From: an uncultured Methanosarcinales archaeon
Lineage (GTDB): Archaea > Nanobdellota > Nanobdellia > Woesearchaeales > UBA12501
Direction of reading: 5' to 3'
Length of the DNA stretch: 64,000 nt
Assembly (NCBI GenBank): GCA_964343705.1
Contig: CAYFJX010000001.1
Coordinates: 6,100-70,099, forward strand
Shown here in pieces: positions 23,696 through 59,640 of the stretch. Under the pieces are notes generated by a model. It did no database searches. It was not told the origin of the DNA and was given only the letters and a program-made list of their open reading frames with translations. The position numbers were made by a program, and so were the translations under genes. Position 1 is the stretch's first letter. Each line of letters starts with the position of its first letter.

Positions 23696-23783
23696 ACAAA
23701 AAAGGAAACTTCCACTCCTTTATATACCTTCCCCCCTAAAACAGCCTAAAGCTATAAATAGAACCCCCTCACCCGATATACTA

Positions 23784-27098: not shown

Positions 27099-28604
27099 AT
27101 GACACTTACAATCATCCATGGACACACACAGAAGAATCTCAAGAAGTGGACAGGCAAAAAATGGTACCACCAACGTTTTGATGGGTCCCCCTACCTATTG
27201 CACTTTATTGCTGAGGCTGAGATTGCAAAAGAACCACGCAAATTAGATGGCCACAACTATGTACATTACTGCTTTTTTGATAATGGCAAGGCAGACTGGT
27301 ACATTGAAATGGTGGACATCAAAAGAATTTACACCAGTGTAATCACCGCAGGAAAGAGCAATCCAAAAATTAGCACGCAGTTTCTTGCTGATTGGAAAAA
27401 TGATGAACATGAATTCTATGAAAAATGCATAGAGATAGGTAACACCAATCTCTCAGAGCTTCGTGATACTGAGCTTCTTGCATTGCATGATGATTTCCTA
27501 CATATAACCCTACGACGTAACAGCAGCAGCTCAGTTATTGATGGTTTTGCACTTGGAACAGACACACTTATTGCAGAAAAAATAAAGGTAGTGTATGAAA
27601 CTTCCAAGCTCAAAGAGACAATGAGATCAACAGAAGTATTTTCCATACTCACAGCCCCAGTTCATCTTTCATTTATCAATCATGCAGAAGTTGCCCTCCT
27701 GAAACTAGCAGTAGCAGTCAAGAAAGACCCCAACAGAAAAGAAGACCTACTTGCAGAACATCAAAAGAACTTTTTTTGGATTCGAAATAATTATGTTGAT
27801 GCAAATGTACTAGATACTGTATACTTTAACGAAGAATTAGACAAGATTTTTTCAATTAACATTGATGTTGAAGAAGAAATAAAGAAAATAGAGGAAACAC
27901 CTCAAGTAAACAAAAATAGAAAAGCAGAGCTTATGAAAAAACTTACATTAGATGATGAACTCAAACTGTTAATTAAAGTGTCAGAAGATTTTACCTATTG
28001 GCAAGATGAAAGAAAAAAGGCAACATTCTGGACTGCACACTATGCAACACTAATCCTTGAAGAAATTGGCAAGAGGGTAGGAATAAGTGCAGATCTTCTC
28101 AAATACGCAAGCCCACGGGAAATCGCTGCAGTGTTCAAAAAAGAAATCACCCAGGAAGAGCTCACAGAACGACAAAAGAATAGCGTGTTTTATTGGGATA
28201 CTGAGGGACATGAATGTCTCAGTGGAGAAGAGGCAGAAAAAGTAAAACAAACAATTTTAGGCACCACTGATTTATCAGATGTTGATGACTTCAGAGGCCT
28301 CACTGCAAGCATGGGTAAGGCAACAGGCACAGTAAAAGTCCTTAAATCTGCAAAAGAAGTTGACAAAGTGGAAGAAGGTGACATCCTTGTGGCAGTAATG
28401 ACAAGACCTGATTATGTTCCCGCCATGAAAAAAGCAGCCGCCATAGTAACAGATGAAGGTGGTGTAACGTGTCACGCAGCAATAGTCAGTAGGGAACTTG
28501 GCATCCCATGTATAATCGGCACCAAAATTGCCACAAAGGTTTTAAAAGATGGAATGCAAGCAGAGGTCAACGCTAATCATGGCTGGGTGAAAATAGTAAA
28601 ATAA
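27099..28604 (+). CDS. PEP-utilizing swivel-domain protein, paralog 3
   Basis: KKWYHQRF, NFFWIRNNY, WQDERKK, and C-terminus GDILVAVMTRPDYVPAMKKAAAIVTDEGGVTCHAAIVSRELGIPCIIGT. Confidence 0.75.
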   Translation: MTLTIIHGHTQKNLKKWTGKKWYHQRFDGSPYLLHFIAEAEIAKEPRKLDGHNYVHYCFFDNGKADWYIEMVDIKRIYTSVITAGKSNPKISTQFLADWKNDEHEFYEKCIEIGNTNLSELRDTELLALHDDFLHITLRRNSSSSVIDGFALGTDTLIAEKIKVVYETSKLKETMRSTEVFSILTAPVHLSFINHAEVALLKLAVAVKKDPNRKEDLLAEHQKNFFWIRNNYVDANVLDTVYFNEELDKIFSINIDVEEEIKKIEETPQVNKNRKAELMKKLTLDDELKLLIKVSEDFTYWQDERKKATFWTAHYATLILEEIGKRVGISADLLKYASPREIAAVFKKEITQEELTERQKNSVFYWDTEGHECLSGEEAEKVKQTILGTTDLSDVDDFRGLTASMGKATGTVKVLKSAKEVDKVEEGDILVAVMTRPDYVPAMKKAAAIVTDEGGVTCHAAIVSRELGIPCIIGTKIATKVLKDGMQAEVNANHGWVKIVK

Positions 28605-28628: not shown

Positions 28629-30098
28629 ATGACAAAAACAACAGGCAATCAAGCAATAACAAAAGAAACCATCTTCAAACAGATTAAGAAGAAGTGGTAT
28701 GCGCAAGGATTTAACTGCACACCCTTACTTCTAGGTGGACCTGGCCTCAGCGGATTTGATGTCAAGCCAACATTAGGAGATAATTATAAGAGCTTTCTGT
28801 GGGAATTCAAAAACGAGTACGGTAAAATGTACTATGCTGTTGATGACCTAGAACGACTTGGCAAACTACTTGTTGCCAAAATCAAAAAAGAAAAAAACTA
28901 CATTGACATGCTTAGGAAAAAAGATCAAAAACGGCAAGAAAAAACAATACAAGATGTTATTGCAATCCCAGAAAAGGAATACAAAAACCTGTCTGACAAA
29001 GAATTATACAATCTTCTTCGTAAAGCAGCAAAAGCAAACAGAGACGTTGGAAAAATATCCCACATAATAGAAGGATTTTCTCTCACAGCAGACACTGAAA
29101 TAAAAGAACGACTCGAGAAGTATGTAAAAGATAGAAAAAAACTCAACAAATACCTCTCACTTCTATCCACACCAACAGAGCGCTCATTTATCAACGAACG
29201 AGAAGAGGACCTACATGAGATTGCACAGATTACAGACAAGGACAAACGAAAAAAAGCAATAGAAAAACATCTTAAGAAATTTTACTGGGTGCAAAACACG
29301 TATGCTGGACGTGTACGACTTACACCAGAAGAAATAGAAAAAGAATTAAGCACACTTCAGTATGAAGCAATTGACTTTGCAAAAATAGAACAAGAAAAAA
29401 ATGAAGCACTCAAACTCCTGCAACTTGATGAAGAACTAACCATGCTACTTCAGGCATCTGTTGACATCACAAGCTGGCAAGATGAAAGAAAAAAGAACAT
29501 TTTCATTAACATTGATGTAATAGAAGGAGTTATTGAAGAGATAGGTAAGCGATTAGAAATTGACCATAAACTTCTGAGGTACATTACTTACCATGAAGCA
29601 GTTGAAGGGGATATATTCTTGCAAGAAAATCTCAAGGAAACACTCACAACACGACGAGCAGGAATGATCCATTTTGCTGATGACACAAACACAGATGGAA
29701 TTCTTATTGGAGACGAGTACAAAGAATTCCATGAACGTATAGGTGAGGAAGAAAAAAAGCAACTTGAAACAAAAGAATTCAAAGGCATGGCTGCTTGTAC
29801 TGGCATAGCAATTGGAAAAGTTCGCGTTTGCACTAGTCTACAAGCAATACAAGATTTTAAAGAAGGAGAAGTGCTTGTTGCATCCATGACTCGTCCAGAA
29901 TATCTTCCAGCAATGAAAAAAGCATGTGCCATAGTTACTGACGAAGGAGGGATTACCTGCCACGCAGCTATTGTGTCCCGGGAACTTGGTATTCCCTGCA
30001 TCATCGGCACCAAGATTGCAACTAAGACCCTTCAAGATGGTGATACAGTTGAAGTTAAGGCAAACCATGGATTAGTTATAATCAGGGAAAAGGGATGA
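28629..30098 (+). CDS. PEP-utilizing swivel-domain protein, paralog 4
   Basis: KKWYAQGF, KFYWVQNTY, WQDERKK, and C-terminus GEVLVASMTRPEYLPAMKKACAIVTDEGGITCHAAIVSRELGIPCIIGT. Confidence 0.75.
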   Translation: MTKTTGNQAITKETIFKQIKKKWYAQGFNCTPLLLGGPGLSGFDVKPTLGDNYKSFLWEFKNEYGKMYYAVDDLERLGKLLVAKIKKEKNYIDMLRKKDQKRQEKTIQDVIAIPEKEYKNLSDKELYNLLRKAAKANRDVGKISHIIEGFSLTADTEIKERLEKYVKDRKKLNKYLSLLSTPTERSFINEREEDLHEIAQITDKDKRKKAIEKHLKKFYWVQNTYAGRVRLTPEEIEKELSTLQYEAIDFAKIEQEKNEALKLLQLDEELTMLLQASVDITSWQDERKKNIFINIDVIEGVIEEIGKRLEIDHKLLRYITYHEAVEGDIFLQENLKETLTTRRAGMIHFADDTNTDGILIGDEYKEFHERIGEEEKKQLETKEFKGMAACTGIAIGKVRVCTSLQAIQDFKEGEVLVASMTRPEYLPAMKKACAIVTDEGGITCHAAIVSRELGIPCIIGTKIATKTLQDGDTVEVKANHGLVIIREKG

Positions 30099-30111: not shown

Positions 30112-31614
30112 ATGAAAGCAATTAAGAACGCTGTTATTCCAAAAGAAAAAGTATTTGAGCAAGTCAAGAACAAGTGGTATACACAAGGCTTTAATGGAGC
30201 CCCTATTCTTTCTGCACCAGCTGGCACATTAAGTAGTTTTGACATTGGTGAAACCTTAGGAGATGAGTTTCAACACCAACTTCTTGAGTTCAAAGAAGAT
30301 GTTGCAAAATTACACTACCCTGTTGATGACCTAGAACGCCTATCAAAAATCATACTTACAAAACTTGAAAAAGATAAGAACTTCTTTGAAAAAGTGGAAA
30401 AAAAATACCAAGCAACATTTGACAAAGCATTTCAAGACTTACTTGGAGAAGCACAAACACCTTTTGCTTTTGCAGAGGGGTTGACAGATATTTCCAACAC
30501 AGAACTTGTTGCACTCATTAACAAAGCTTTGGATGTTGTTCGCCTGTCAGTTGGACAAGGCCATATCATAGAAGCTTTTGCATTAACAACTGACAAGCAG
30601 CTTTTGGAATCACTCAGAAAATATATCCCCAATCAAAAAAAACTCAATAGTGCATATGCAAAACTTTCATCCCCCACAAAAAGATCATTTATAGGCAAAA
30701 GTGAAGCAGACCTTGGAAAAATAGCGTGTATTAAGGATGATAAGAAACGAGATGCTGCTATACAAAAACATATAGAAAAATTCTTCTGGATCAAGAACAG
30801 TTTTGCAGGTAAAGTCACCATTTCCCCTGAAGATATTGAAGAGGAATTACCCCTGTACTACAACTACAAAGAAACAGACCTTGGTGCTTTGGAGAAAGAA
30901 CAAAAAGAAATGATCAGTGAGTACAAAATAACTGGAAAAACCCTAACCTTGTTACAAGCCACAAAGTATGTTGCATTATTTCAAGACAATCGAAAAGTGA
31001 ACATGCTCAGGAGCTTTCACTATGGAGATATCCTAATAGAAGAACTTAGCAAGCGGTTAGGAATTGACATTAAACTGGTGAGATATTTGTCTGCATACGA
31101 ATTTAATGAATCAGTATTTACTGATACCACACTAAAAAAGACACTTGAAGAACGACGCAGAGGAACAATAATGTACCATACTCCTAGCGGTGAGGGGATA
31201 CTAACAGGAGATGATTACAAGAAATTCTGCGCGGAATTGCAAAAGGCAAGAGGTGTAGAAATTGATCTAAAACAATTAAATGGCTTATCTGCGTCAGTGG
31301 GAACTGCTTTGGGCAAAGTAAGTATTTGCAGTAGCCTAGACGACATCAACAATTTCGAAAAAGGCGATATTCTTGTTGCATCAATGACCAAGGTTGAGTT
31401 CTTACCTGCAATGAGAAAAGCAGCAGCCATTATTACTGATGAAGGTGGCATCACATGCCATGCAGCAATAGTCAGCAGAGAATTTGGCATCCCTTGCGTT
31501 ATTGGCACCAAACATGCAACAAGAGTTTTGCACAATGGTGATCTTGTCGAAGTACGAGCAAACCATGGAGTGGTAATCATTAAGGAAAGAACCATAGAAC
31601 GGAGTCAACAGTAG
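30112..31614 (+). CDS. PEP-utilizing swivel-domain protein, paralog 5
   Basis: NKWYTQGF, KFFWIKNSF, FQDNRK, and C-terminus GDILVASMTKVEFLPAMRKAAAIITDEGGITCHAAIVSREFGIPCVIGT. Confidence 0.75.
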   Translation: MKAIKNAVIPKEKVFEQVKNKWYTQGFNGAPILSAPAGTLSSFDIGETLGDEFQHQLLEFKEDVAKLHYPVDDLERLSKIILTKLEKDKNFFEKVEKKYQATFDKAFQDLLGEAQTPFAFAEGLTDISNTELVALINKALDVVRLSVGQGHIIEAFALTTDKQLLESLRKYIPNQKKLNSAYAKLSSPTKRSFIGKSEADLGKIACIKDDKKRDAAIQKHIEKFFWIKNSFAGKVTISPEDIEEELPLYYNYKETDLGALEKEQKEMISEYKITGKTLTLLQATKYVALFQDNRKVNMLRSFHYGDILIEELSKRLGIDIKLVRYLSAYEFNESVFTDTTLKKTLEERRRGTIMYHTPSGEGILTGDDYKKFCAELQKARGVEIDLKQLNGLSASVGTALGKVSICSSLDDINNFEKGDILVASMTKVEFLPAMRKAAAIITDEGGITCHAAIVSREFGIPCVIGTKHATRVLHNGDLVEVRANHGVVIIKERTIERSQQ

Positions 31615-31615
31615 A

Positions 31616-32926
31616 ATGCCACTGAAGAAAAAAGTTGGAGGAGTTCTCATTTTCATTGTAACAATTATGGTATTGTTTGTGGTGACTGAAGTTGGCTTGC
31701 GAGCATTCTACCCTCAATTAACACCAACAACAAATGAACCATCCAAAAGTTTTAACCAGTGTGCAGCACAGATTGAATTCAGTGAGCAGGGTGAAAAAAA
31801 GAAGTCAATCATACAAGTACCTGATTTCCTTATATCAGATCCAATTATAATCTATTCAAACAAGGGTAAGAAAAGGGATATACCTATTGAAGCATTACCC
31901 TTTCCTGAACTTAGCGCGATTGGGCTTAAACCAGTACCTTATTGTAAGATCAGTAAAACAAGTGAAAACCCCCCAAACATGGCAAACTACAGATTAAACA
32001 ATCTTGGTATGCGCATGAACAAGGACAGTACGCCAAAGCCACGTGTCGGCACAAAAAGAATCCTTCTCATTGGAGACTCTTTTGTTTTTGGCACAGGAAT
32101 TGACCAGAATGAGACACTTAATTATTTTTTAGACAATCTTCTCCCTGAAAATACCGAAGTGCTTAATGGGGGTATCCCCACACTTTCAAGTCTACAAACA
32201 AACTTGCTTTTTAGCAGCACGTACAAAACACTGGAAGCAGACACAGTAATTTTCTTACAGTACATGAATGATGTAACAGATAACCTTCGTCCATCTTCTA
32301 AGTACCGACGACCAACATACATACCAGAAAATGATACAATAGAAAAAATAATGGCTGAAAAAAAACCTACGAAAAAAGAAAGCCCCCCTCCCAATCCGTT
32401 AATTCACAAATCTCACTTCCTAACGCTGTTTAGTAAGACAATGGAAAAAATTACAACCCCAAAAAAGCCATTGGGTACAAACCCCAGACTCCTTCCTTTG
32501 CTCCAACTGCTAAGAAAACAACCAATACCTGTTATAGAAAAAGCATACATATTCAACTGCGACCAAGTACTTGCTCCACTCAAAGAAGCTGTAGGTGAAA
32601 CTGGTGCACGTTTCATGCTAGTCCATATCCCTTCACGATTAGAAATGGACAGGAAAGCATTTGTAGATACAATTAAGAATCATGCAGACCTCTCTGTGGA
32701 TGAATTTGACCAAGAATTAGTTGGGAGAAAAATAGCAGAATGCGCAAAAGAACACAACATCCCATTCATTAACCTCCAACCATACTTCAAAAAATACACC
32801 ACCCAATCAGGGGCTGAATGGTACAACTCTCATGGCAGTCATTGGTCGCCTAAAGCAACACAATTAACAGCTCGAGTGTTAAACACTGTCCTTAGCAAGG
32901 AATTTAAAAACAGAATAAAAGAATAA
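31616..32926 (+). CDS. SGNH/GDSL-like hydrolase or acyltransferase-fold membrane protein, paralog 1 of 3
   Basis: N-terminal TM, RILLIGDSFVFGTGIDQNETLNYFL (block I Ser), C-terminal EWYNSHGSHWSPKAT. ATG lies 2 nt after the paralog-5 stop. Confidence 0.6.
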   Translation: MPLKKKVGGVLIFIVTIMVLFVVTEVGLRAFYPQLTPTTNEPSKSFNQCAAQIEFSEQGEKKKSIIQVPDFLISDPIIIYSNKGKKRDIPIEALPFPELSAIGLKPVPYCKISKTSENPPNMANYRLNNLGMRMNKDSTPKPRVGTKRILLIGDSFVFGTGIDQNETLNYFLDNLLPENTEVLNGGIPTLSSLQTNLLFSSTYKTLEADTVIFLQYMNDVTDNLRPSSKYRRPTYIPENDTIEKIMAEKKPTKKESPPPNPLIHKSHFLTLFSKTMEKITTPKKPLGTNPRLLPLLQLLRKQPIPVIEKAYIFNCDQVLAPLKEAVGETGARFMLVHIPSRLEMDRKAFVDTIKNHADLSVDEFDQELVGRKIAECAKEHNIPFINLQPYFKKYTTQSGAEWYNSHGSHWSPKATQLTARVLNTVLSKEFKNRIKE

Positions 32927-36116: not shown

Positions 36117-36576
36117 AAAGCAAGTAAACGGAATAAAATTAGTAGAGCCAAATGATAATATTAGCCAAGAATATTTTGAAAATGCTGAAGAAAGTTTACA
36201 GGTTCTAAGAAGTATTTATGAAACAAGATCAAATATGTGGCTTGCAACAACAAAATACTATATTGAATATTTCGCTATTTATTCAGTTTTAATGAAAATA
36301 GGAATAAAATGTGAAATACATGATTGCACAATTTTATTAGTAAACTTTCTTGAAAAGGAAAAGATCTTTAAGGAAGGTGTAAGCAAGATTTTAGAAGAAG
36401 ATAAAGGACTAAGAATAGATAACCAATACTATTTAAAGAATAAAGAAGTGCCTATAAATTTTGAAGAATTAGCAGATTTCCTGATTTCAATAAAGAATAT
36501 GCTAGATATGTTAGACAAAGAAAGAATAGAAGAGATTAGGAAAAAGATACAAGATGAAGAAGTAACAAAAACATAA
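36082..36576 (+). CDS. HEPN-like protein (partner of MNT)
   Basis: All-helical 164-aa ORF overlapping the MNT gene 3' end. The canonical Rx4-6H motif is not obvious. Confidence 0.4.
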   Translation: MVNFMKKINWCKKQVNGIKLVEPNDNISQEYFENAEESLQVLRSIYETRSNMWLATTKYYIEYFAIYSVLMKIGIKCEIHDCTILLVNFLEKEKIFKEGVSKILEEDKGLRIDNQYYLKNKEVPINFEELADFLISIKNMLDMLDKERIEEIRKKIQDEEVTKT

Positions 36577-36631: not shown

Positions 36632-37948
36632 ATGAATCAAAAGAACCAAAAAGAACTTATCAAGAAAGTAAACACCATGAAATGGGAGCATTGGTTGTAT
36701 AGAAACTTCCCTCCTTTTAGTGGCCATATTATTGCTTCTGGAGCATTACCTTCTGAATATGAACGCATGGGGTACCCGGCAAAGGGTGTTGAGGGTTTTA
36801 TTTATGACAGTAACAATTGGTGGCGTTGCATGCCTGTATACGATGCAAGTGCAGATTGGGTAGATGAGTACTTACAAAAGCACACTGTTTTCGAAACAAC
36901 CAAAGCAATCCAGAAACATTATGATAAATACAAAAACAGAATTAAAGAGATTGCTGCTGACACAAGTAGCGACCCAATTGAACAATTTAGGGAAGTATGT
37001 GATATTCTTAGGCCAATCTGTGTGTGGATTTGGATTTGCCACCAGTTTGAAGTATGGATAAAGAAGGAAGTAAAAAAACAAATCCCTCCCTTTCTTAAAA
37101 AAGGAGAAGATCTTGATTTGTATGTGGGGGATATAAGTCTTCCAACAAAAAAGAACCACCATGAGCTCATGGCAGACGCCCTGATTGCAGGACAAGACCC
37201 AAAAGAAGTACATAAAGAATATGGATGGATCAAAGCACGAGGTAGAAGTGGATTTGCAAAAGGGTACACACTTGAAGAAGTAAAGCAAATGCAAAAAGAC
37301 TTACAAAAGAAAAAGAGCCACAAACTTAAACCAAAAAAAGTACCAGCTGAACTTGAAGAACTTCAAAAGCAATTGCAAGAATTAGTGTGGTTTCGCTTAT
37401 TCCGGACAGATATTGCGTACGAATTTGTATATAATTCACACCCACTCTTTGAAAGAGTTGCAAAAGCACGGGGTATTGAAAAAGTAGAAGACTACCTGTA
37501 CACCGACATTCTTGATACAACTAAGGAACCAAAAAAGTATGACCCCAATAATTATGCAGTACTAAAAGAAGGCACCACCCTTCTTATTGTCGACCACGCA
37601 GTCTTGGAACATGATGAAGTCAAAGACACTGAACTTAAAGGAGTGACTGCAATGAGAGGCAAAGCAACAGGCACAGCAAAAATAGTTATGAATGTTAATG
37701 ACATGCACAAAGTCAAGAAAGGAGATATTCTTGTAACTCCCATGACTATTGCACCTTATGTTCCTGCAATGGAGCGATCAGCAGCGTTTGTAACTGACGA
37801 AGGAGGTATTACCTGCCACGCAGCTATTCTCTCGCGAGAAATGAGCAAGCCATGCATTATTGGAACTAAAAAAGCAACCAGTGCATTTAAAGATGGTGAT
37901 GTTCTCGAAGTAGACGCTGATGCAAGCATTGTTAAGAAAATACGATAA
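36632..37948 (+). CDS. PEP-utilizing swivel-domain protein, paralog 6 (most divergent)
   Basis: C-terminus GDILVTPMTIAPYVPAMERSAAFVTDEGGITCHAAILSREMSKPCIIGT. N-terminus has MKWEHWLYRNF. Confidence 0.7.
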   Translation: MNQKNQKELIKKVNTMKWEHWLYRNFPPFSGHIIASGALPSEYERMGYPAKGVEGFIYDSNNWWRCMPVYDASADWVDEYLQKHTVFETTKAIQKHYDKYKNRIKEIAADTSSDPIEQFREVCDILRPICVWIWICHQFEVWIKKEVKKQIPPFLKKGEDLDLYVGDISLPTKKNHHELMADALIAGQDPKEVHKEYGWIKARGRSGFAKGYTLEEVKQMQKDLQKKKSHKLKPKKVPAELEELQKQLQELVWFRLFRTDIAYEFVYNSHPLFERVAKARGIEKVEDYLYTDILDTTKEPKKYDPNNYAVLKEGTTLLIVDHAVLEHDEVKDTELKGVTAMRGKATGTAKIVMNVNDMHKVKKGDILVTPMTIAPYVPAMERSAAFVTDEGGITCHAAILSREMSKPCIIGTKKATSAFKDGDVLEVDADASIVKKIR

Positions 37949-37968: not shown

Positions 37969-39588
37969 TTATCCAACAACCTTTTTGTTCTTCATCCACT
38001 GATGCACAATTTTTGCGCTTTCTTTTGTTGCCTTTGGAGACCAATGGTTTCCTGCTTGATTGTACCATTCAAGTGTTTGGGGAGTGAAATGATTATGCAA
38101 GTCAATGAAATCAATTCCATGCTTTTCTGAACAGGACTGCAACTTTGTTCGCATAAGCTCAAGATCAAAGTCATCTGGATCTGCACCAATATACGATTTC
38201 ATAGTTCGCTGAAAAGAAGGTGCATGAAGTTCTGCTTTAGACGGCACATACAGAACCAAGAATGGCACGTCAGTTGACTGTTGAAAGATGCGCAGCACTG
38301 CGTCGCAATTAAATGTGTATGCTTCTTGTGCTTGAGGAAGCAACTCTTTGCGTACCATTTGATAAATATCCATTTCTATTGGTTTTTCTTCCATTACTCT
38401 GCGTCGATTAAGCAGAACATCTTTGTTTTTGTCAATGAGCGCCAGGAAGTGTGATGAATACACAAACGGCCCTTGCCGTTTACCAATGCTATTCTTCTTT
38501 TCTTTAAATGGAACAAACATGTCAGCACGAACGTTTTTTGTTTCAAAGTCATACAGGGGTTTTTCATAATGTTTTATTTCAAGGTTACCTCGCACGTCAT
38601 TGAAAGAATGTACCAACACCACGGCATCTGGTTGGTATTCTTTGTATACTCGTTGGTAGAGTAGCAAACTTTGAAGTGTTGATATACCACTGATTCCCCC
38701 GTTAAGAACTTCAACTTTTTCACTGAAGGATTCACCCAATGACTCACCTAAGTAATGACTAAGTGTTTGATCTTGATCTAGACCTGCTCCAAAAGCAAAG
38801 GAGTCACCCACAACTAAAACGCGTTTAACACCTGTTGGTTTTTCCAGAGTGATATTATTGTCCATACGAAATGCGTGATTGTTCATGTGGAATGTTGCCA
38901 GGCCAGGAGGGTTTTCACTCATCTTGACAATTCTACAATTAGGAAGTGTTCCAATACCTGCTGCAAGCAAACGAGGATCATCACCAAGAAGACTAATTTC
39001 TTTTCCATCTCCTAGGCTAATAGCAATTGGATTAATCAAGGTAACATCTCGCGCCATGAGTTCAACTTCTCCTGTTTCACCAAGATGTAATCGCTTGTCT
39101 TTAACTGTAAAATATTGCGTACAGTCTCTTTTGTTCTGATTCAAAATAGATAAGCCAAGGGTTGTATTCTGCTGTGCTTGAGGATAGGTTGTTGCAAGTG
39201 AGAATTCAACAACCACTGATGAAACAACTAGAATACTAATGAAGAGTAAGATGCTCAGCTTCTTGTTCCAAGCCCTACCAAAGAGATGTTTCCATCTTCT
39301 CGGCTTTCGAAGAGGAGGGATAAATATAAGCGCAAAAAGAAGAGGTGCAAATAACCCCCACAATGCCAATTCAAGTATCTCAGGGGCAAACGAAAAACTG
39401 AGAGTGTTAAAAACCAGAGAGAAAAAATGAGTCAACATTAATTTCCCCACTGAAACCCATTCTAGCCCCAGTGTTCCCAGATCTTCAATGTAAAAAGGGT
39501 GAATTTGATGGGGAACTGGAATAAACATCAAGAGTAGAAAAAGTGCAATAAGCACGTGCTTCTTCTTTAAGGTTGCTTTGAGATCCAT
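37969..39588 (-). CDS. SGNH/GDSL-like membrane protein, paralog 2
   Basis: Four N-terminal TM helices with IPVPHQIHPFYIED, RVLVVGDSFAFGAGLDQDQTLSHYL, and C-terminal EWYNQAGNHWSPKAT. Confidence 0.6.
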   Translation of the reverse strand: MDLKATLKKKHVLIALFLLLMFIPVPHQIHPFYIEDLGTLGLEWVSVGKLMLTHFFSLVFNTLSFSFAPEILELALWGLFAPLLFALIFIPPLRKPRRWKHLFGRAWNKKLSILLFISILVVSSVVVEFSLATTYPQAQQNTTLGLSILNQNKRDCTQYFTVKDKRLHLGETGEVELMARDVTLINPIAISLGDGKEISLLGDDPRLLAAGIGTLPNCRIVKMSENPPGLATFHMNNHAFRMDNNITLEKPTGVKRVLVVGDSFAFGAGLDQDQTLSHYLGESLGESFSEKVEVLNGGISGISTLQSLLLYQRVYKEYQPDAVVLVHSFNDVRGNLEIKHYEKPLYDFETKNVRADMFVPFKEKKNSIGKRQGPFVYSSHFLALIDKNKDVLLNRRRVMEEKPIEMDIYQMVRKELLPQAQEAYTFNCDAVLRIFQQSTDVPFLVLYVPSKAELHAPSFQRTMKSYIGADPDDFDLELMRTKLQSCSEKHGIDFIDLHNHFTPQTLEWYNQAGNHWSPKATKESAKIVHQWMKNKKVVG

Positions 39589-39607
39589 AAGAACTGCAAA
39601 ATAGGTT

Positions 39608-39620
39608 GGTTATAAAAATG
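39608..39620 (-). promoter_or_regulatory. TATA box for the SGNH paralog-2 gene
   Basis: TTATAAAAA about 22 nt upstream of the ATG at 39588 on the minus strand. Leaderless-type spacing. Confidence 0.35.
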
Positions 39621-39624
39621 TTGT

Positions 39625-39634
39625 CGAATCAGAG
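39625..39634. repeat. 10-bp direct repeat CGAATCAGAG (left copy, putative target-site duplication)
   Basis: Identical 10-mer at 39837..39846, immediately outside the inverted termini. Confidence 0.4.
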
Positions 39635-39836
39635 GGTGTGTCCCAAGAGTCTTTCTGAGAGGTGGCACTGCCGCAAGGTTTTATCAGGAAATCTCAAGGG
39701 ACGAAGCTCCTTGACGCATCTGAGCTTTGCTCAGATTGCGGCCGAATAATGAGGCGATTTCCGTATGAATGGATTTGAGTAGTTAACACCGCAGTGCCAC
39801 CCCTCCTGCACAAAAAGCAAGATTTGGGACACACCC
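39635..39836. mobile_element. MITE-like nonautonomous element (~202 bp), or alternatively a long-stem structured RNA, in a divergent promoter region
   Basis: Terminal inverted repeats GGTGTGTCCCAA and TTGGGACACACC(C). Sub-terminal inverted repeats GAGGTGGCACTGCCG / CGCAGTGCCACCCCTC. Internal hairpins ATCTGAGC-TTT-GCTCAGAT and GGAAATC...GATTTCC. No ORF. Confidence 0.4.
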
Positions 39837-39846
39837 CGAATCAGAG
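39837..39846. repeat. 10-bp direct repeat CGAATCAGAG (right copy)
   Basis: Matches 39625..39634. Confidence 0.4.
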
Positions 39847-39851
39847 GAAGC

Positions 39852-39859
39852 TTTAAATA
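39852..39859 (+). promoter_or_regulatory. TATA box for swivel-domain paralog 7
   Basis: TTTAAATA 23 nt upstream of the ATG at 39882. Confidence 0.35.
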
Positions 39860-39881
39860 GGTGATGACTAACCCGAGGAAC

Positions 39882-41318
39882 ATGGAAATCAGCAAGTTTA
39901 CAAACAAGAAATGGGTCATACAGGGTGCTGTCATCACACCTCACCTGAACGCGTTTGCAGTCGATGCACTCACCAAGGGCCTCCAAGATATTACAGGACA
40001 TGGTTTGAGTGTTATTCTCACGTTTATGACACAAGAAGGAGAGTACAGCCATTGGGTACTTGATGAAGAATCATTGAATACAGAGGGAAAATGGTATGAT
40101 GATCACCCTGAAGAACTCAAGAAACTCTTCATGGCATGGGAAAAAGCGCGTGATGTCTATTATGAATACATTGAAGGCATCATGGAAAAAGGTGTTACTG
40201 ACCCCATTACAGAATACAAGCAATTTAGAGAACATTATCAAAATGCGTACGCTCATGCTCTTGTGACAGAACACTTTATTGTGTGGGGTGACAAGATACT
40301 TGCAACAATTCTTGAAAAGATACCTAAAGAAAAAAGAAAACAGGTTGAAATACTGACTGCACCAATCAAACACACTTTCTTAAATGATGAGGAGCTTGGC
40401 CTTCTTAAGATAGGATTACAATTTAAGCAAACAGGAAAAATCTCTGAAGAAGACTTGAAGAAACACACTAAGAAATTTTTCTGGATCAGAAACAATTACA
40501 AGAACACTAAGCCAATGAGTTTACAAGAATTTGAAAAACGTTTGCATGCATCCATTGCAGAACTAACTGAAAAACAAGTTACAGCAAAGATTGCAGAGTT
40601 AGAAACATATGAGCAAGATCTAATTAAGAAAAAAGAACAAGCTCGAGAAAAGCTTGGCTTGGCAAAGGAAGATGAGGAAAAGCTTGAACTTCTTTCTTTA
40701 GTTGCATGGTGGCATGACCAACGTAAAAAAGGAAATCTTCTTGGCGATCATGTTGCAGGATTGTTTTTTGAAAAAGCGGCAAAAGACCATACCGCTCCCT
40801 TAATTGATATTAAATTTATGCTGCCAGATGAATTCTTAAAGTTTCTCGAAACAGGAGAGTACAATAAAGATGAAATACAAGAACGAAAAAAAGCATGTGT
40901 GTACATAACAGCAAATACAGGTGAGAAAAGCATGCATACTGGGAAGACCTATGAAGAACTTAGTGAAACAGTACTTGAACAAGAATATGAAGAAAAAATA
41001 AAGGATGTTCGTGGAATGACTGCTTCGTATGGCCATGCAAAAGGTCCAGTAAAAGTAGTTCTAAACCCCAAGGATACTGATATAGAAAAAGGAGACGTTC
41101 TTGTAACAAGTATGACAAGGCCTGAATATGTCCCTCTTATGAAAAAAGCAGCAGCAATAGTAACAGATGAAGGAGGAGTTACAAGTCATGCAGCTGTAAT
41201 TTCACGAGAATTGGGAATACCTTGTATTGTTGGTACACGTATTGGAACAAAGGTACTTAAGGACGGCATGGTTGTTGAAGTCCGTTGTAACCATGGCCTT
41301 GTTAAGATTTGTGATTAA
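39882..41318 (+). CDS. PEP-utilizing swivel-domain protein, paralog 7
   Basis: NKKWVIQGA, KFFWIRNNY, WHDQRKK, and C-terminus GDVLVTSMTRPEYVPLMKKAAAIVTDEGGVTSHAAVISRELGIPCIVGT. Start set at the ATG positioned for the TATA box. The ORF track starts at a GTG at 39861. Confidence 0.7.
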   Translation: MEISKFTNKKWVIQGAVITPHLNAFAVDALTKGLQDITGHGLSVILTFMTQEGEYSHWVLDEESLNTEGKWYDDHPEELKKLFMAWEKARDVYYEYIEGIMEKGVTDPITEYKQFREHYQNAYAHALVTEHFIVWGDKILATILEKIPKEKRKQVEILTAPIKHTFLNDEELGLLKIGLQFKQTGKISEEDLKKHTKKFFWIRNNYKNTKPMSLQEFEKRLHASIAELTEKQVTAKIAELETYEQDLIKKKEQAREKLGLAKEDEEKLELLSLVAWWHDQRKKGNLLGDHVAGLFFEKAAKDHTAPLIDIKFMLPDEFLKFLETGEYNKDEIQERKKACVYITANTGEKSMHTGKTYEELSETVLEQEYEEKIKDVRGMTASYGHAKGPVKVVLNPKDTDIEKGDVLVTSMTRPEYVPLMKKAAAIVTDEGGVTSHAAVISRELGIPCIVGTRIGTKVLKDGMVVEVRCNHGLVKICD

Positions 41319-41332
41319 GCCTACAACGTATC

Positions 41333-43030
41333 TTATGAAGCATTGAGCACTCCGTTCTCCATCATCCATTCTTTGACACTATGTGCAGTAACATTGGTTG
41401 CTCGTGGAGACCAGTGACCTCCTGGTCGATTATACCACTCCCGCGGGCGCACATTTCTATGAGAATTAAACACTTCAGCCAAGTCAAGTAAGGGAATACC
41501 ATGTTTTTTTGCACAGACATGGATATACGCATTGCCTTGTAACCTGTCAAATTCACCTGGATCTGCATCAAGATAGCTTCTGATTGTTCTTTTAAAGTAA
41601 GGCTCGTCAAGTTCAATGTGAGGTGGAATGTAAATCAACAAAAAGGTTGCATTGTTTGCCAGAACAAGATCATAAAAAGGTTTGAGAACATAATTACAAT
41701 TAACGTTAAGAGCGTGGATCATAGATTGAGGAGGTTTTGTATTGAAGACATGAAACATAGATAAGTGACGAGGATTATCCCCCATAATTCGTTTTAGATT
41801 AAGTAGCTCATTTTTGACACCCTCAGCAAAGGAGACAAAATGAGAATAGGGAACAAGCGGTCCTGTGCTGGAACTAATGCCAAGGCGATCAATAGCTTTC
41901 CCAATAGGAGCATGCCGAATTAAGGTTTCATCTTGCAGAGAAAAAATAGGCATCTCATAATCAGATCGCTGTTCAAGATTACCATTGATATCATTAGGGT
42001 AGTGAAAAAAAAGCACTATATCAGGATCCCAATATTGTAAGGTGTCATTGTACATCAAATAACTTTGTAGAGAAGAAAAGCCTTGTACACCTGCGTTCAA
42101 AACTTGCGTTGTATCGCTTGTTAGTGCATTAAGATAATGACTCACTGTTTCATCTTGATCCATGCCCGCACCAAACGCAAAAGAATCTCCCATAACCATA
42201 ACTCGCTGTGAAATATTTTCTTTAGAACGGGTCACATTTTTTTGCATACGAAAACCATGATTATTAGTAACATAATCAACAAGATGAGTGCCGTCTTCAC
42301 CAACTTTTCTTGCTTTACAGTTGGGAACATTCTTAATCCCTGCTGAAACATTAAATCTGATTTCCACATTCTTCCCTGAAGCCGAATCAATTATTTTGGA
42401 AGGAGATGTAAGAACATAATGATGAAAATGGAACCCTCGCAATACTTTTCTCCCATCTGATTCAACTGGAGCAACAAAAGGACAATAAATCTGACTTGAT
42501 AATTCTTTTGCAACATCAGGAGAAATTTTCTTAGTAGGAAAAGACATTGCAAATACCAGCTCAATAACCAAGAGTATGATTATGCAAGTAGCAATACCTA
42601 ACAACAAATTCTTTGCCACAGTTCTATTGAACCCAGGTTGAAAGGAAAAAACAGGTTTAGACAAAAACCTTGGACCAAACCTAGGCAAGCCAGCTGCTGC
42701 TAAACACGTAAAAAAAAAGACTAAAGAACAATACAAAAAAACAGGGAGAACCAGCCCCCATATAAAAACATGGAACGTATAAGGATTAAAGGTTAATGTA
42801 AGAGCGTACAAAACAGAGGTTATTGCATGTGAGAAGAAAATGTTCCCTAGGAAAGCAGACTCAATTCCAAATGTGCCAACTTGTTCTATGTAAAATGCAT
42901 GTATCTCATGAGGAAAAGGAATCAGACAAACCAGGACAAAGATAAGAAGGTAAATTATACGAACTCTTGTCAATTCCCGAGAAAACCTCCTGAGAAAAGC
43001 CCTACTACCAGTTTTTCCTCTATCCCCCAT
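41333..43030 (-). CDS. SGNH/GDSL-like membrane protein, paralog 3
   Basis: IPFPHEIHAFYIEQ TM domain, RVMVMGDSFAFGAGMDQDETVSHYL, and C-terminal EWYNRPGGHWSPRAT. Confidence 0.6.
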   Translation of the reverse strand: MGDRGKTGSRAFLRRFSRELTRVRIIYLLIFVLVCLIPFPHEIHAFYIEQVGTFGIESAFLGNIFFSHAITSVLYALTLTFNPYTFHVFIWGLVLPVFLYCSLVFFFTCLAAAGLPRFGPRFLSKPVFSFQPGFNRTVAKNLLLGIATCIIILLVIELVFAMSFPTKKISPDVAKELSSQIYCPFVAPVESDGRKVLRGFHFHHYVLTSPSKIIDSASGKNVEIRFNVSAGIKNVPNCKARKVGEDGTHLVDYVTNNHGFRMQKNVTRSKENISQRVMVMGDSFAFGAGMDQDETVSHYLNALTSDTTQVLNAGVQGFSSLQSYLMYNDTLQYWDPDIVLFFHYPNDINGNLEQRSDYEMPIFSLQDETLIRHAPIGKAIDRLGISSSTGPLVPYSHFVSFAEGVKNELLNLKRIMGDNPRHLSMFHVFNTKPPQSMIHALNVNCNYVLKPFYDLVLANNATFLLIYIPPHIELDEPYFKRTIRSYLDADPGEFDRLQGNAYIHVCAKKHGIPLLDLAEVFNSHRNVRPREWYNRPGGHWSPRATNVTAHSVKEWMMENGVLNAS

Positions 43031-45295: not shown

Positions 45296-46729
45296 ATGAC
45301 TAGTATAACAGCTGAAGACCTATCTAAAGGAATAACACAAGACGTGCTTGAACTAGTGTATCCTTCAACATTGATTAGAGGTCTTTTTGAGAAACTCGTA
45401 CAAGAGTATGTAAAAGCAAGAATTCCTAAGGGAGACTTACAAGAGGTTGATTTTGATCTTATCGATAGAATCCATCGAAGTGATGAAAGAGGGCGTCTCA
45501 CAAGACTTATGCGTGAAGCAAATAATCGTAGGCACCATCTTCTTGAAGAAGCTGTTGATGCTATGCTGGAGCACGCAAGTGCACTTCAAGGATTAGACGA
45601 GCGAGCAACTGAACGTGTTGATTATAGAGAGTTTGTGTTTCGTTGTAACAAAAAAGGGCATGAGTATAGGAGACGAGTGCTCCATGAAGGAGAAAACTGG
45701 GAAGAAAAAAGAAAAAGAGTGAATCCTGCACAGATTAAGGTACGACGTGAAAATATTTTGTACACCACTGGAGACGAACTTATTGATGAAGACAATAAGC
45801 TTTTGTGTGGAATCTGTGAAGAGAAAACAGAAGGAGTTCGGTTATCACGAGTACATCTTCTTCGAGAAAGAGGTTACCTTAAACAGGCAAAAGAAAGAGT
45901 AACTGCTGTTCTTGACCAAACCTATGATCGTATGAAAAAGAAGCTTCGCATTCCAAAATCATCATTTGAAGATCGGGTGATTGAAAGTATTGCTGCACGA
46001 TATCCAGATGTTCGACGACTGCGAAGAATAAATTGGGAGAGAATGTATGAAATCCTAGAGAATGTACGAAGAAAAAACATTGATGAAGAGGTAGTTTTCA
46101 GACATGTTTCAGATTTGTCAAGATTTCATGTTGTTGCAGCGATCCAAGAACATATTCCTGCACCAATATGCGCTGCAAGAAGTAGAGAAAAATATAATAT
46201 TAGATTCAGTAAAAAATCATTAAGGTATGTTGTGCGCGTTAGAATCTATGATCAAACCGGAAGAGATGGAAGAGTAGATCCAATCCTAAAACCAATTGAC
46301 TTGTTTGGAATTAGAGGTGTATTTGCAACGATTGCATTATGTAGAGCGATTAATGCCTGTTTAGAAGATGATGATTCATTTATGACTCTGCCCAAGAAAT
46401 TTAAAAAAGATGATCTTCTTGGTGGCCCGAGTTCAGGATACAGATCTTTACATAATGCATTTATCTATCAAGGAGCTCATGGTACACTTCCTTTTGAAGC
46501 ACAGTTTAGAACACATGAAATGGATGCAGACTCAGAATATGCTGATAAAAGACAAGACCATAAGAATATGGAACAAAAAGGCCGACAAATAATTAGAAAT
46601 GCTGCAGATCCCTACATGGAGCCTTTGTTTAATGCATTGCTTGCCCCTGCTGAGCACAAGTACATGATGAAGTTAATAGCGCAGAGCTGTACACCCACTA
46701 ATCCTTTGCCAGAATCCGCCTTGTTTTAG
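45296..46729 (+). CDS. RelA/SpoT-homolog (RSH) nucleotidyltransferase (synthetase-type) domain protein with Arg-rich N-terminal extension
   Basis: Synthetase motifs DLFGIRGVFATIALCRA, SGYRSLHNAFIY and PFEAQFRTHEMDADSEYA, colinear with DxxxxRxI, GYxSLH, VE-Q-RT-MH-AE. Confidence 0.7.
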   Translation: MTSITAEDLSKGITQDVLELVYPSTLIRGLFEKLVQEYVKARIPKGDLQEVDFDLIDRIHRSDERGRLTRLMREANNRRHHLLEEAVDAMLEHASALQGLDERATERVDYREFVFRCNKKGHEYRRRVLHEGENWEEKRKRVNPAQIKVRRENILYTTGDELIDEDNKLLCGICEEKTEGVRLSRVHLLRERGYLKQAKERVTAVLDQTYDRMKKKLRIPKSSFEDRVIESIAARYPDVRRLRRINWERMYEILENVRRKNIDEEVVFRHVSDLSRFHVVAAIQEHIPAPICAARSREKYNIRFSKKSLRYVVRVRIYDQTGRDGRVDPILKPIDLFGIRGVFATIALCRAINACLEDDDSFMTLPKKFKKDDLLGGPSSGYRSLHNAFIYQGAHGTLPFEAQFRTHEMDADSEYADKRQDHKNMEQKGRQIIRNAADPYMEPLFNALLAPAEHKYMMKLIAQSCTPTNPLPESALF

Positions 46730-51634: not shown

Positions 51635-52612
51635 ATGAAGCATAAGGTTCTTAGAATAGGTTTTCGCTTTTTTCTTTTTGCTCTACTTGTCAGCAGTGTT
51701 CCCATAATACTCCAGGTAATTGCAGCTCTTCTGGGATTTGATGAGCAGTTTTGGATTGCCCAAACCCATCCTTCCCTCTTTATAGCCACAATGGTGCTGT
51801 TGTTCTTTCTTATGAAGCGAAACGACCTCGAGCAGGTCAAGACCTCAAGCAGGGTATCACAAGCATGGTTCTTGGTGGGGTCATTACTTTCTTTTGCTGC
51901 TTATTTTGTTGTTAAGTATGCGTTTCCTTGGAAAGGAATTAGTACGCATTTCACCGTAAAATTGCTCTTTATATGTGCCTTTGTATTCTACTCAGTGGGT
52001 GTTTTTTTATTGTTTCTTGCCATGTTTTCTTGGGTATTTCTAAAACAGTACAAAACAAGCATACTAGGAATACTATTCACCACGATCTTTTATTACGGAT
52101 TTAATTACATTATTCTCAAAAAGATGGCAGTGTTTACTTTTATTGTAGCTAAAATCATTGCAACACCCCTGAGTTGGACAGGATCCCTTTCATTGGGCAC
52201 AACAAGTACTAATGACCCTTTGATTGTGTACAATGGTTTTCATGCTGGTATTGGCACTCCTTGCTCTGGTGTCCAGTCATTAAACATCTTTATGCTCTTG
52301 TCATTACTCTTGCTCTGCTTTGACTGGAACAAACTCAGAAAGGGAAGAAAAGCAATGTTGGGCATTTCCTTGCTTGGTGGATTAGTTGGAGTATACTTAG
52401 TAAACATAGTGCGCGTTTATGTGCTTATGCTCATTGGAGGGCATTTTTCACCTCACTTAGTGGAAGCATTTTTCCATGATAATGCTGGATGGGTTATTTT
52501 CAGCCTGTTTACAGTTGGGTACTGGGCTGTGTTGTATCCAAGACTCTTTAAAAAGAGCGCACCTCGCAAAATCGTCGGGAAAAGCAACACAAAGACACAA
52601 AAAAACATATAA
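51635..52612 (+). CDS. Archaeosortase/exosortase-family polytopic membrane protein (putative)
   Basis: About 8 TM helices. Cys in GIGTPCSGVQSLN (exosortase CSG-type context) and Arg in VNIVRVYVLM. A PEF-CTERM-type substrate gene lies at 60388..63009. Confidence 0.5.
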   Translation: MKHKVLRIGFRFFLFALLVSSVPIILQVIAALLGFDEQFWIAQTHPSLFIATMVLLFFLMKRNDLEQVKTSSRVSQAWFLVGSLLSFAAYFVVKYAFPWKGISTHFTVKLLFICAFVFYSVGVFLLFLAMFSWVFLKQYKTSILGILFTTIFYYGFNYIILKKMAVFTFIVAKIIATPLSWTGSLSLGTTSTNDPLIVYNGFHAGIGTPCSGVQSLNIFMLLSLLLLCFDWNKLRKGRKAMLGISLLGGLVGVYLVNIVRVYVLMLIGGHFSPHLVEAFFHDNAGWVIFSLFTVGYWAVLYPRLFKKSAPRKIVGKSNTKTQKNI

Positions 52613-52692: not shown

Positions 52693-54930
52693 GTGAAATC
52701 TGAAAAGTTCTTTGTAACTGCACTCATTTGGGTAAACACAGCCATATTCATATTCTTTGTACTGTCTAGCCAAGTTGAAGCACCTACTTTTGAAACACAA
52801 GCATGTACTGAAGATGCGTCTTGCGATTCAGAATGTGGTGGTTCTCCTTCGTATAGGAACTTTGGCACTTGTTTCAGTGATTCTAGTTGTTTTACTGAAT
52901 GTAGTGGTTCAAGCAGTAGTTCGTCTGGTGGGGCAGGGAACTCCACGCAATGTGGCTCAGTAAGTAACAGCATCACATTGATCCAAGATGTAAGTGCTGA
53001 GAATACATGTTACACTTTTGGAGCTAACAACATTGTACTGGATTGTGATGGTTACAACATTACCTATGCAACTAGTGCAATGGGAGGAGGATCAAATGGA
53101 ATCTCTGTACCAGGATATGGTAATTTTACCATAAAAAACTGCGAGATTGCTGAAGGAAAAAATACTTCAAGCCTTAACATAGGTATCTCCCTAGCTGCCA
53201 CGAACAATGGAACAGTACCAGTACAAAACTTCAGTATTAAGAACACAAATGTGACCACAAACACCAATGGTTCACATGGATTGTCTATGACCGGACCAGT
53301 TGATAATTTTAACATTAGTGACCTTAGTGTGTTTACTAAAGGTGCAAATGCAAGTGGTGTATTTATGGAAGGATTACACAATGAATCAGGAACAGACATA
53401 CGAAACAGCACATTTAACACCACAGGAACCAACTCAATTGCAGTCTACATGAACGGTTCAAATTATAGTTTTATTTTTAACTCAACACTGCTCACTACCG
53501 GCGAGGACGCTGATACATTAACCCTTCTTGAAAGCCTGGAAAACACTTTTCTTAATTTAAACATCTCATCAACATATGGTAAGACCATTAACGATACTAC
53601 ACCAGTTGGATATGTTAATCATCTAATATTCAACAACTCATTCGGAGAACTTAAGTGGATCAACAAAGGGGTTGGGGCATTTAACAAAGACTTAAGCCTA
53701 AGTGCACCCATTGCTTTGGGCAAGGATGTTGTGATTGGAGCAAACACAATTGCCTTGAATACCAGTTCATACAACCTCGCCACAGACGACATAAACAAGA
53801 GCGCCAATATTACCCTGAAGAGTCTTAACTTCACAGCTCTTAACGATATTTTCGAACTTCAAAATTTTGAGACAGACAGTGGACAAATACGAAAAAATGG
53901 AACTCAATGTCTTCCCAGTGGAAATGGAAAATGTGTAAAGATAGCATACACATCTAATATACTTTATTTTAACATTACCAGTTTTAGTAGTTACAGTGGT
54001 AATGGTACTGAAGCAGGTGGTGGCACTGCAGATCTTACAATTAATTCATTAAACATTACATTTAATGATTCTGGTTCAACATATATTGGCAATCATCCGA
54101 TAACACTGCGTGGAAATGTAAGTAATCAAGGAAGTGCTGATGCAACAAATGTTAAAGTACAGTTCTTACAACGAACTGGAGCAGCAACATTTGCTGAGAT
54201 AAATAATGCAACCATTAATGTCACTGCTGGTTCAATCACTGAAGCAAATGTAACCTTTACTCCAACTCTTGGTCCAAATAATGTAACAGTAAAAATAGAT
54301 CCAGACAATAGCATTAGTGAATCTGATGAGAATAACAACAATAATTCAAGGATCCTGGATGTATCTGCGTATCAAACATACCATGGAAGTGCGCAAGCAC
54401 GACGTAAACTTGGGCAAAACACCACCACCCTGAGGGAATGGGTTTTAGTTAATGCTTCTGTCATCATGGCTGCTGATATAGATAGTAATCCAACGTTTGC
54501 AGAACTCCAAGAAATTGGGCTGAATACAACTAATGGCTCGTCAAACACAGATTTTACACAATTAGACGCTACCTTTGGAATGACCGGTTTCGACGATTCA
54601 ATAACCACCCTGTATAGCACAAACGGTTCGTCTCCAAATTCAACAGAAAATTTTGTTATTGTCGGCCAAACTCATGCGGCAACACCCATTATAAGTAGCT
54701 CCCCAGGAAGCACCTTTATCACAGGTATACTCTGGGATACAAGTGATGACACTGGTGATGATGGAGAATTTGACCTTTCAGACAGAGAAGATCTAGTCTT
54801 TGTAACACGATGGAATGGTTCACAAAGTACTGAATATGGAGTGAAAGATTATGTGCTCAAAGTGCCTGCAAATTTACAAGGATACATAGGGGAAACTGAT
54901 CAGTTAGCAATTTATGCTGCATTACCATAA
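52693..54930 (+). CDS. Secreted parallel-beta-helix surface protein, heavily N-glycosylation-sequon rich
   Basis: Signal anchor. Repeated N-x-[ST] and G-x-N/S repeats typical of right-handed beta-helix (NITYATSAMGGGSNGISV, NFSIKNTNVTTNTNGSHGLSM). Confidence 0.55.
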   Translation: MKSEKFFVTALIWVNTAIFIFFVLSSQVEAPTFETQACTEDASCDSECGGSPSYRNFGTCFSDSSCFTECSGSSSSSSGGAGNSTQCGSVSNSITLIQDVSAENTCYTFGANNIVLDCDGYNITYATSAMGGGSNGISVPGYGNFTIKNCEIAEGKNTSSLNIGISLAATNNGTVPVQNFSIKNTNVTTNTNGSHGLSMTGPVDNFNISDLSVFTKGANASGVFMEGLHNESGTDIRNSTFNTTGTNSIAVYMNGSNYSFIFNSTLLTTGEDADTLTLLESLENTFLNLNISSTYGKTINDTTPVGYVNHLIFNNSFGELKWINKGVGAFNKDLSLSAPIALGKDVVIGANTIALNTSSYNLATDDINKSANITLKSLNFTALNDIFELQNFETDSGQIRKNGTQCLPSGNGKCVKIAYTSNILYFNITSFSSYSGNGTEAGGGTADLTINSLNITFNDSGSTYIGNHPITLRGNVSNQGSADATNVKVQFLQRTGAATFAEINNATINVTAGSITEANVTFTPTLGPNNVTVKIDPDNSISESDENNNNNSRILDVSAYQTYHGSAQARRKLGQNTTTLREWVLVNASVIMAADIDSNPTFAELQEIGLNTTNGSSNTDFTQLDATFGMTGFDDSITTLYSTNGSSPNSTENFVIVGQTHAATPIISSSPGSTFITGILWDTSDDTGDDGEFDLSDREDLVFVTRWNGSQSTEYGVKDYVLKVPANLQGYIGETDQLAIYAALP

Positions 54931-54965
54931 GAAAGTTTATAAAAAAAAGAAGGTAAAAAAGCACC

Positions 54966-57095: not shown

Positions 57096-57136
57096 GACAT
57101 AAAATCTAAATTCAGAAATCTAAATTTGATCTAAGA

Positions 57137-57736
57137 CTACTTTAAATTCTGAGGGTGCATAACAATCTTCATTTCAATTCCTTTCTGAGTAATAAACTCT
57201 CTGACAGCTTTTTGTTTGAGCCCTTCTATTTTTTTAGCTTGTTCAGCTGTTAGGTTGCCACTCACGTTTGCGCCGCTTGTCTGTTTAAGCTGTGTTTTTT
57301 TGGCAATAAAGTCCAGCCCAAGCAAACGCAATCCTACAAAGCGTTCAATTGGTTCAAGATCAATAGACGACCCGTCACTCTGCATAAATGCAGAGGGGTT
57401 TTCCTCTTGCATGAGGTGTATACTTTGCTGTACTTCAACACTATTGACTCTAAGCCCTGCTTTTTTTGCTTGGTCAGCTAAAATAAAGTGAGGGACTACA
57501 ATGTCATTAAGGAAAATTTCTGGTTGAAGCTTTGTTGTAGGACCAAACACTTCATATAATGTGTTAAACTCGTGCCGTGTTAGTTTTTCATCTTCTATCT
57601 CCATAACAAGAAGATGTGCTTTCTCATCTTGAACATTATCTGAGAGAATAAAAAAAACAAGGACAAGAACAAGAAGGGATAGAATTGCACAAATAATAAA
57701 GCCCGGTTTAATCTTGTGATTTCGTATCTTAACCAT
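57137..57736 (-). CDS. Membrane-anchored hypothetical protein
   Basis: 199-aa ORF, N-terminal TM. Follows the surface-protein gene 57746..59581 on the same strand. Confidence 0.4.
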   Translation of the reverse strand: MVKIRNHKIKPGFIICAILSLLVLVLVFFILSDNVQDEKAHLLVMEIEDEKLTRHEFNTLYEVFGPTTKLQPEIFLNDIVVPHFILADQAKKAGLRVNSVEVQQSIHLMQEENPSAFMQSDGSSIDLEPIERFVGLRLLGLDFIAKKTQLKQTSGANVSGNLTAEQAKKIEGLKQKAVREFITQKGIEMKIVMHPQNLK

Positions 57737-57745
57737 GAAAATCCC

Positions 57746-59581: not shown

Positions 59582-59640
59582 AAATGTTTATATAGTTAGT
59601 GTTAAATTGTTAAATTGTAAATTACCTCTTGATTTAATAG

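Follow-up and report, generated by a model that had tools for sequence, protein, structure and literature searches.

A probable MITE inserted between two divergent promoters of an archaeal genome, and its terminus-sharing relatives

The stretch of DNA analysed here (64 kb in all, hereafter the window) contains, between two divergently transcribed genes, a segment of about 200 bp that carries no gene and folds back on itself, and which raises the questions of what it is, how it came to lie between two promoters and which enzyme could have placed it there. Its termini are complementary at 13 out of 13 positions, and when folded it forms a long foldback, whichever strand is considered. Inside the termini are a sub-terminal inverted repeat (Table 1) and a small internal hairpin (39718-39725 / 39729-39736). 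An exact 11-nt direct repeat, CGAATCAGAGG, is found on both sides of the segment (39625-39635 and 39837-39847), and the final two bases of this repeat are at the same time the GG with which the terminus begins. The ends of the element were set by comparison with 11 related elements (GGG...CCC). Since this GG is counted with the terminus, the target-site duplication at this locus is best read as 9 bp, CGAATCAGA, and not as 11 bp; it is possibly 8 bp, if one of the matching bases agrees by chance. The only ORFs overlapping the element are 46-47 aa long and were judged spurious; for the 46-aa one that lies wholly within it, an exact look-up in a public collection returned no called gene. No tRNA was found in a tRNA scan. 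We consider it very probable that the segment is a MITE, that is, a 203-bp DNA transposon unable to move unaided. Much of this had been proposed in an earlier, sequence-only reading of the stretch, whose MITE-like insertion with inverted termini, sub-terminal inverted repeats, an internal hairpin and no ORF, lying between two divergent TATA boxes, is borne out by the features listed in Table 1. The termini it described are confirmed, while the extent it gave (39635..39836, 202 bp) had to be corrected by one base, and the duplication that it read as 10 bp becomes shorter once the ends are set by the relatives.

Table 1. Positions in the window of the element, of its insertion site and of related features of the gene neighbourhood.
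Feature	Position	Strand	Remarks
MITE (very probable)	39634..39836	.	203 bp, 51% G+C, no coding capacity; genome 38% G+C
Left terminal inverted repeat	39634..39646	+	GGGTGTGTCCCAA, next base G
Right terminal inverted repeat	39824..39836	-	TTGGGACACACCC; inward reading GGGTGTGTCCCAA, next base A, giving GGGTGTGTCCCAAA
Sub-terminal inverted repeat, left arm	39657..39671	.	15 nt, 93% complementary to 39791-39805
Sub-terminal inverted repeat, right arm	39791..39805	.	Partner 39657-39671
Target-site duplication, left copy	39625..39633	.	CGAATCAGA; -37..-45 of the minus-strand gene
Target-site duplication, right copy	39837..39845	.	CGAATCAGA; -45..-37 of the plus-strand gene
TATA-like box	39610..39618	-	TTTTTATAA; -30..-22 from the ATG of the SGNH hydrolase gene; intact
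TATA-like box	39852..39859	+	TTTAAATA; -30..-23 from the ATG of the plus-strand gene; intact
SGNH/GDSL-type hydrolase paralog, 539 aa	37969..39588	-	PF13472, E 6e-11
478-aa protein with C-terminal PEP-utilizers mobile ('swivel') domain	39882..41318	+	PF00391, E 8e-25
Swivel paralogs	17840-19270, 23622-25217, 27099-28604, 28629-30098, 30112-31614, 36632-37948, 39882-41318
SGNH/GDSL/AlgX-like hydrolases	31616-32926, 37969-39588(-), 41333-43030(-)		Interleaved with the swivel paralogs
Starts with a TATA-like octamer	9323(-), 26809(-), 27099, 32966, 36632, 39588(-), 39882, 43030(-), 51635, 60388

Taken alone, the inverted repeat is unremarkable, since 3 perfect inverted repeats of 12 bp or longer, with arms 100-400 nt apart, were observed where about 2.2 are expected per window. 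Only one of the three, the 39634-39836 pair, has an abutting direct repeat. When chance inverted repeats of this kind were collected from 150 random Markov-1 windows, none out of 334 had a flanking repeat of at least 8 bp. The duplication flanking the element is non-random, and as both the termini and the duplication are perfect, the insertion is probably recent. The two other perfect inverted repeats of the window (16154-16521 and 36188-36351) have no flanking direct repeats and correspond to the chance level.

The position of the insertion can be described precisely. Without the element and one copy of the duplication, the intergenic region measures 81 bp (the reconstructed empty site reads AAGAACTGCAAAATAGGTTGGTTATAAAAATGTTGTCGAATCAGAGGAAGCTTTAAATAGGTGATGACTAACCCGAGGAAC), and the 9-bp target occupies positions 37-45 of it, i.e. 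its centre, at -45..-37 from both start codons. Because the target is centred in this way, with each TATA box lying nearer to its gene, the insertion falls exactly between the two BRE/TATA modules of a compact bidirectional promoter, which it has split while leaving both cores intact. The TATA boxes were 20 bp apart before the insertion, and the core promoters are now 212 bp further apart. This placement could reflect either a target preference or the survival of an insertion at the sole harmless site. The sequence-only reading had suggested that the expression of both genes may be altered by the element. A TATA-like A/T octamer at -30..-22 from the ATG was found for at least ten genes of the window (Table 1), and such a distance from the start codon would imply that transcripts are largely leaderless. 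The insertion offers a natural test of mutual influence between two divergent leaderless promoters situated 20 bp apart.

The host is an archaeon, as its gene content shows: the window encodes aRF1 with an intein, ribosomal protein L37ae and a TrmB regulator, and TATA-like boxes precede many of its starts. The element attests to active transposition in a DPANN-like archaeon with a small genome; taken alone it is a routine annotation item, of an ordinary element type. As for the neighbourhood, the stretch from 17840 to 41318 encodes at least seven paralogs of about 440-530 aa, in which the C-terminal swivel domain is the sole recognisable one; their N-terminal 350-400 aa match no Pfam family. 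The aRF1 gene (eRF1 domains 1-3; 13359-15977, minus strand) is interrupted by an intein with LAGLIDADG and HTH_3 domains. Further along, the product of 45296-46729 (plus strand), of 477 aa, has a weak RelA/SpoT-type nucleotidyltransferase region, and that of 51635-52612 (plus strand) is an exosortase/archaeosortase-like membrane protein, adjoining large proteins (52693-63009) in which either CARDB only or no Pfam family was recognised.

Within the window, no second copy of the element is present, and no second copy of its interior was found in viral contigs or plasmids; a blastn search of plasmids with the window element and one of its high-GC relatives returned only noise. The flanking proteins occur with identical sequence in the ENA assemblies of ERR2281801 and ERR2281803 (PRJEB17505), in the NCBI contig (255,518 nt) and in a Logan contig. 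These four contigs are 100% identical to the window, each of them either containing the element or breaking at it, and no empty site is found among them. The Logan contig (k=31, sample ERR2281803) begins at window position 39807, i.e. 39837-30. Since the unitig of the flank should begin precisely there if the element end has more than one flank, this suggests that the element's final 30-31 nt are joined to further flanks in ERR2281803, and that more copies may therefore exist in this sample. As regards other alleles of the locus, at 90% identity the flanking swivel protein clusters with no other protein, and the SGNH protein only with an unrelated 57-aa JGI peptide (P0002). This peptide is the cluster representative, which is a clustering artefact, and the homologue search for the SGNH protein came back empty because of it. 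A literature search with the terminus sequence gave unrelated primers only.

Relatives were sought with the pattern GTGTGTCCCAA-N(160-195)-TTGGGACACAC, which demands both termini at the required spacing. The scan returned a single locus in 596 Gb of prokaryotic genomes, located in a Woesearchaeota MAG (L004), and 11 loci in the JGI metagenomes (L005-L015), with an estimated 1-2 matches per scan expected by chance. Positions 3-13 of the terminus are fixed by the search pattern, so that their invariance among the matches results from selection. Bases outside the pattern are nevertheless kept as well (of the 28 ends, 27 have G at position 1, 24 have G at position 2 and 18 have A at position 14), which indicates that the matches are not due to chance. 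The interiors of the elements fall into several unrelated groups: a low-GC family (L005, L009 and L012, which are 97% identical at three different sites, with L006 and L015 related to them), a high-GC bacterial family (L007, L010, L011, L013, L014 and L019) and the singletons, which are the window element, L004 and L008. All five members of the low-GC family have clean 8-bp duplications abutting GGG...CCC, and duplications of 8-9 bp are found for L011, L013 and L014; none is recognisable in L004, L007, L008, L010 or L019. The hosts of the low-GC family look archaeal, since genes for an RFC-like protein and for the RNase PH pair of an exosome are present in them. The closest relative of the end of the window element is that of the Woesearchaeota MAG: the left end of the window element, GGGTGTGTCCCAAGAGTC, resembles one end of L004, GTGTGTGTCCCAAGACTC, past the shared core, the likeness extending over 18 nt. 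The L004 element (7528-7738 of JBJKQO010000062.1) is a 211-bp foldback with termini GTGTGTGTCCCAAG (15-bp inverted repeat), and is intergenic, adjoining a Sua5/YrdC gene. So the window element belongs, by its terminus, to a superfamily of MITEs present in low-GC archaea and high-GC bacteria.

Signs of movement come from the high-GC relatives, where one junction was found in three states. It is unoccupied, with uninterrupted host sequence, in L018 (8095-8275), while in L014 (13374-13465) and L017 (1-128) the 3' end of a DUF3368 gene has lost 56 nt, in place of which stands a 78-nt half element. In L019 (6843-7086) the same junction carries a full element of 244 nt, with a different left flank. 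Because the unoccupied, half-element and full-element states occur at one junction, the terminus superfamily is, or was, mobile. L010 (974-1192) and L014 have the left flank and the element in common and differ on the right side. The differences at these junctions represent either deletions and rearrangements associated with the MITE or assembly joins through the repeat. The superfamily is associated with adjacent deletions and rearrangements, and such changes are produced both by replicative transposons and by recombination between copies. The terminus at position 13374 of L014 had also been considered as a third terminus, ending a longer element with an ORF (...LEEIINFA), and this was rejected: the structure is a half MITE, and the ORF is the host DUF3368 gene, as seen in the neighbouring contigs retrieved by homologue searches, including one with a chimeric query.

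For the insertion itself, a DDE transposase encoded elsewhere would bind both 13-14-bp termini, GGGTGTGTCCCAA(A), and join them to a target cut with a stagger of 8-9 nt, the repair of which would leave the duplication CGAATCAGA on either side of the element. With an IS6-like transposase, the insertion would proceed through a replicative 'copy-in' cointegrate, in which the two copies of the element would then recombine. We infer both the identity of the transposase and the mode of transposition. Given that the element is a MITE, an IS6-like mobiliser has in our view a slightly better than even chance, and is the most likely candidate because the terminus has the IS6/IS26 signature: the tip is GG, positions 6-8 are TGT and positions 11-14 of the right end are CAAA (the left end reads ...CAAG). 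The published end of the IS6/IS26 elements has a 14-bp consensus, GGTTCTGTTGCAAA, in which G1, G2 and G7 are nearly invariant, and the GG tips and the cTGTt and caaa motifs are conserved across bacteria and archaea (PMC6807381; PMC7986276). The family makes 8-bp duplications and is abundant in archaea, and two MITEs, 227 and 336 bp long, are known from it; G10 is highly conserved in bacterial IS6 and is lost in archaeal IS6-like elements (PMC6807381; PMC7986276). The right end of the window element, GGGTGTGTCCCAAA, agrees with the consensus at 10 of the 14 positions, including G1, G2, T6, G7, T8, C11 and A12-14, a match that was chosen after several families had been considered. The skeleton GGNNNTGTNNCAAA fits the right terminus and both ends of real IS26, and nothing else in that IS26 locus.

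The window, the fetched loci, viral contigs and plasmids yielded no transposase associated with these termini. A tblastn search with Tnp26, as a single bacterial query, gave nothing in the window and about 100 fetched loci, which cover only a tiny part of the host genomes, and in the plasmid search for archaeal IS6 elements the matches were swamped by IS26. In the scans of viral contigs, the exact matches were single 14-17-mers inside phage structural genes only. Apparent viral 'elements' of 1.2-1.3 kb (L035 and L058/L091) were rejected, as they sit within coding regions.

That no IS6 transposase is found near any member speaks for the explanation that has kept most weight beside an IS6-like mobiliser, namely that the MITE is mobilised by another family, be it IS1, an IS1595/Merlin-like one or an uncatalogued DDE family. 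We regard this as plausible, though with somewhat less than an even chance. IS1 ends are given as GGnnnTG in an ISfinder-style table, with direct repeats of 8-9 bp (PMC10425158), which GGGTGTG fits, and GG tips with 8-9-bp duplications are also described for IS1595/Merlin (PMC8101967). The 9-bp duplication of the window fits IS1 better than IS6. However, the IS1 criteria are common to IS6 and do not discriminate between the two, whereas the IS6 signature is matched across the whole 14 bp, beyond GGnnnTG, and the duplications of the relatives are mostly of 8 bp and not 9. The E. coli IS1 end, GGTGATGCTGCCAA, would match the terminus at only 7 of 14 positions, and past GGnnnTG the likeness to the IS1 end is presumably smaller than that to the IS6 consensus. 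A gene of the DDE_Tnp_IS1595 type was not seen. The sequence-only reading had instead suggested IS4-like transposition from the length of the duplication; with 8-bp duplications in the relatives sharing the terminus, 9 bp in the window and a terminus that fits the IS6/IS26 or IS1 signature, nothing is in favour of this attribution.

The alternative that had been put forward for the locus, a small RNA gene of about 200 nt in which the terminal stem and the inner hairpins would be a selected RNA structure, is very improbable. The fold is indeed very stable (-91.5 kcal/mol, z -8.15), and the G+C content of the element (51%) exceeds that of the genome (38%). The opposite strand, however, folds equally well (-92.2 kcal/mol, z -7.88), with four G-U pairs on each strand, a strand-symmetric fold of this sort being typical of a DNA palindrome. 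The exact duplication on both sides is the mark of an insertion event, and the interiors of elements with the same termini are unrelated. Even within the best-sampled related family, the high-GC one, a single compensatory pair was counted out of 74 and the covariation term is positive, i.e. there is essentially no covariation. Transcription signals do not favour an RNA gene either: the genes on either side are both read in the outward direction, and the element has no TATA box directed into it at the usual distance. An Rfam match to a known ncRNA, which the sequence-only reading had held to count against a MITE, was looked for and is absent: there is none in the whole window at gathering thresholds, none on the element at E<=10 (39400-40100 scanned) and none in 12 related loci at gathering thresholds. 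The sub-threshold Rfam matches (snoRNA-like and group II-like) are at chance level and lie outside the element only. One of them is a weak cmscan match to group II intron D1-D4 at 39402-39542 (plus strand), in the part of the SGNH gene that codes for the N-terminus, a match which we regard as due to chance (17.7 bits vs a gathering threshold of 34.5, E 0.21). Finally, a non-mobile origin, be it as a palindrome due to chance or as a duplication or hairpin formed locally by replication slippage, would agree with the number of inverted repeats expected per window and with the single copy of the element there, but is hardly credible and effectively already refuted, as abutting direct repeats of 8 bp or more are absent from all the simulated inverted repeats and the same 13-14-nt terminus bounds elements at many sites in other organisms, with duplications of their own.

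The reading of the locus as a MITE insertion can be extended, tentatively, to the group as a whole. The elements may form an uncatalogued two-domain superfamily, with a near-invariant terminus, GGGTGTGTCCCAA(A), distributed over DPANN-type archaea (Woesearchaeota and low-GC relatives) and high-GC hot-spring-type bacteria, the autonomous partner of which would be an undescribed clade of IS6-like or other transposases; we consider this conceivable and rather unlikely. If true, such a transposase clade either crosses between the domains or has preserved the same binding site in both. The presence of one 13-14-bp terminus on unrelated archaeal and bacterial interiors suggests a widespread, conserved module of transposase-DNA recognition with the IS6/IS26 signature, and the terminus motif can be used for finding the transposase responsible. 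The IS6/IS26 family matters beyond this locus for its role in the spread of antibiotic resistance in bacteria.

Among known systems, the MITEs of Sulfolobus and of haloarchaea are short, intergenic, non-coding foldback elements that share their termini with resident insertion sequences. The window element is of a like kind, and differs from them in its termini and its host, here a low-GC uncultivated archaeon, as well as in having a terminus that is also found in high-GC bacteria. IS1 uses replicative transposition, and deletions beside it are a known feature; the likeness to it lies in the GGnnnTG ends, the 8-9-bp duplications and the deletions or rearrangements beside the high-GC relatives. 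With IS1595/Merlin transposons and MITEs, the tips and the length range of the target duplications are shared (PMC8101967). From the IS6 consensus, the window terminus deviates at positions 3, 5, 9 and 10 (position 10 being C and not G), and its duplication reads 9 bp, compared to 8 bp for IS6 and for most of the relatives. It nevertheless resembles the MITEs of the IS6/IS26 family (MITEBth2 and MITEHarch3 in ISfinder) in being small and devoid of an ORF, in its short perfect termini with GG, TGT and CAAA within a conserved block of about 14 bp, in the 8-bp duplications made by its relatives, and in a distribution that includes both bacteria and archaea.
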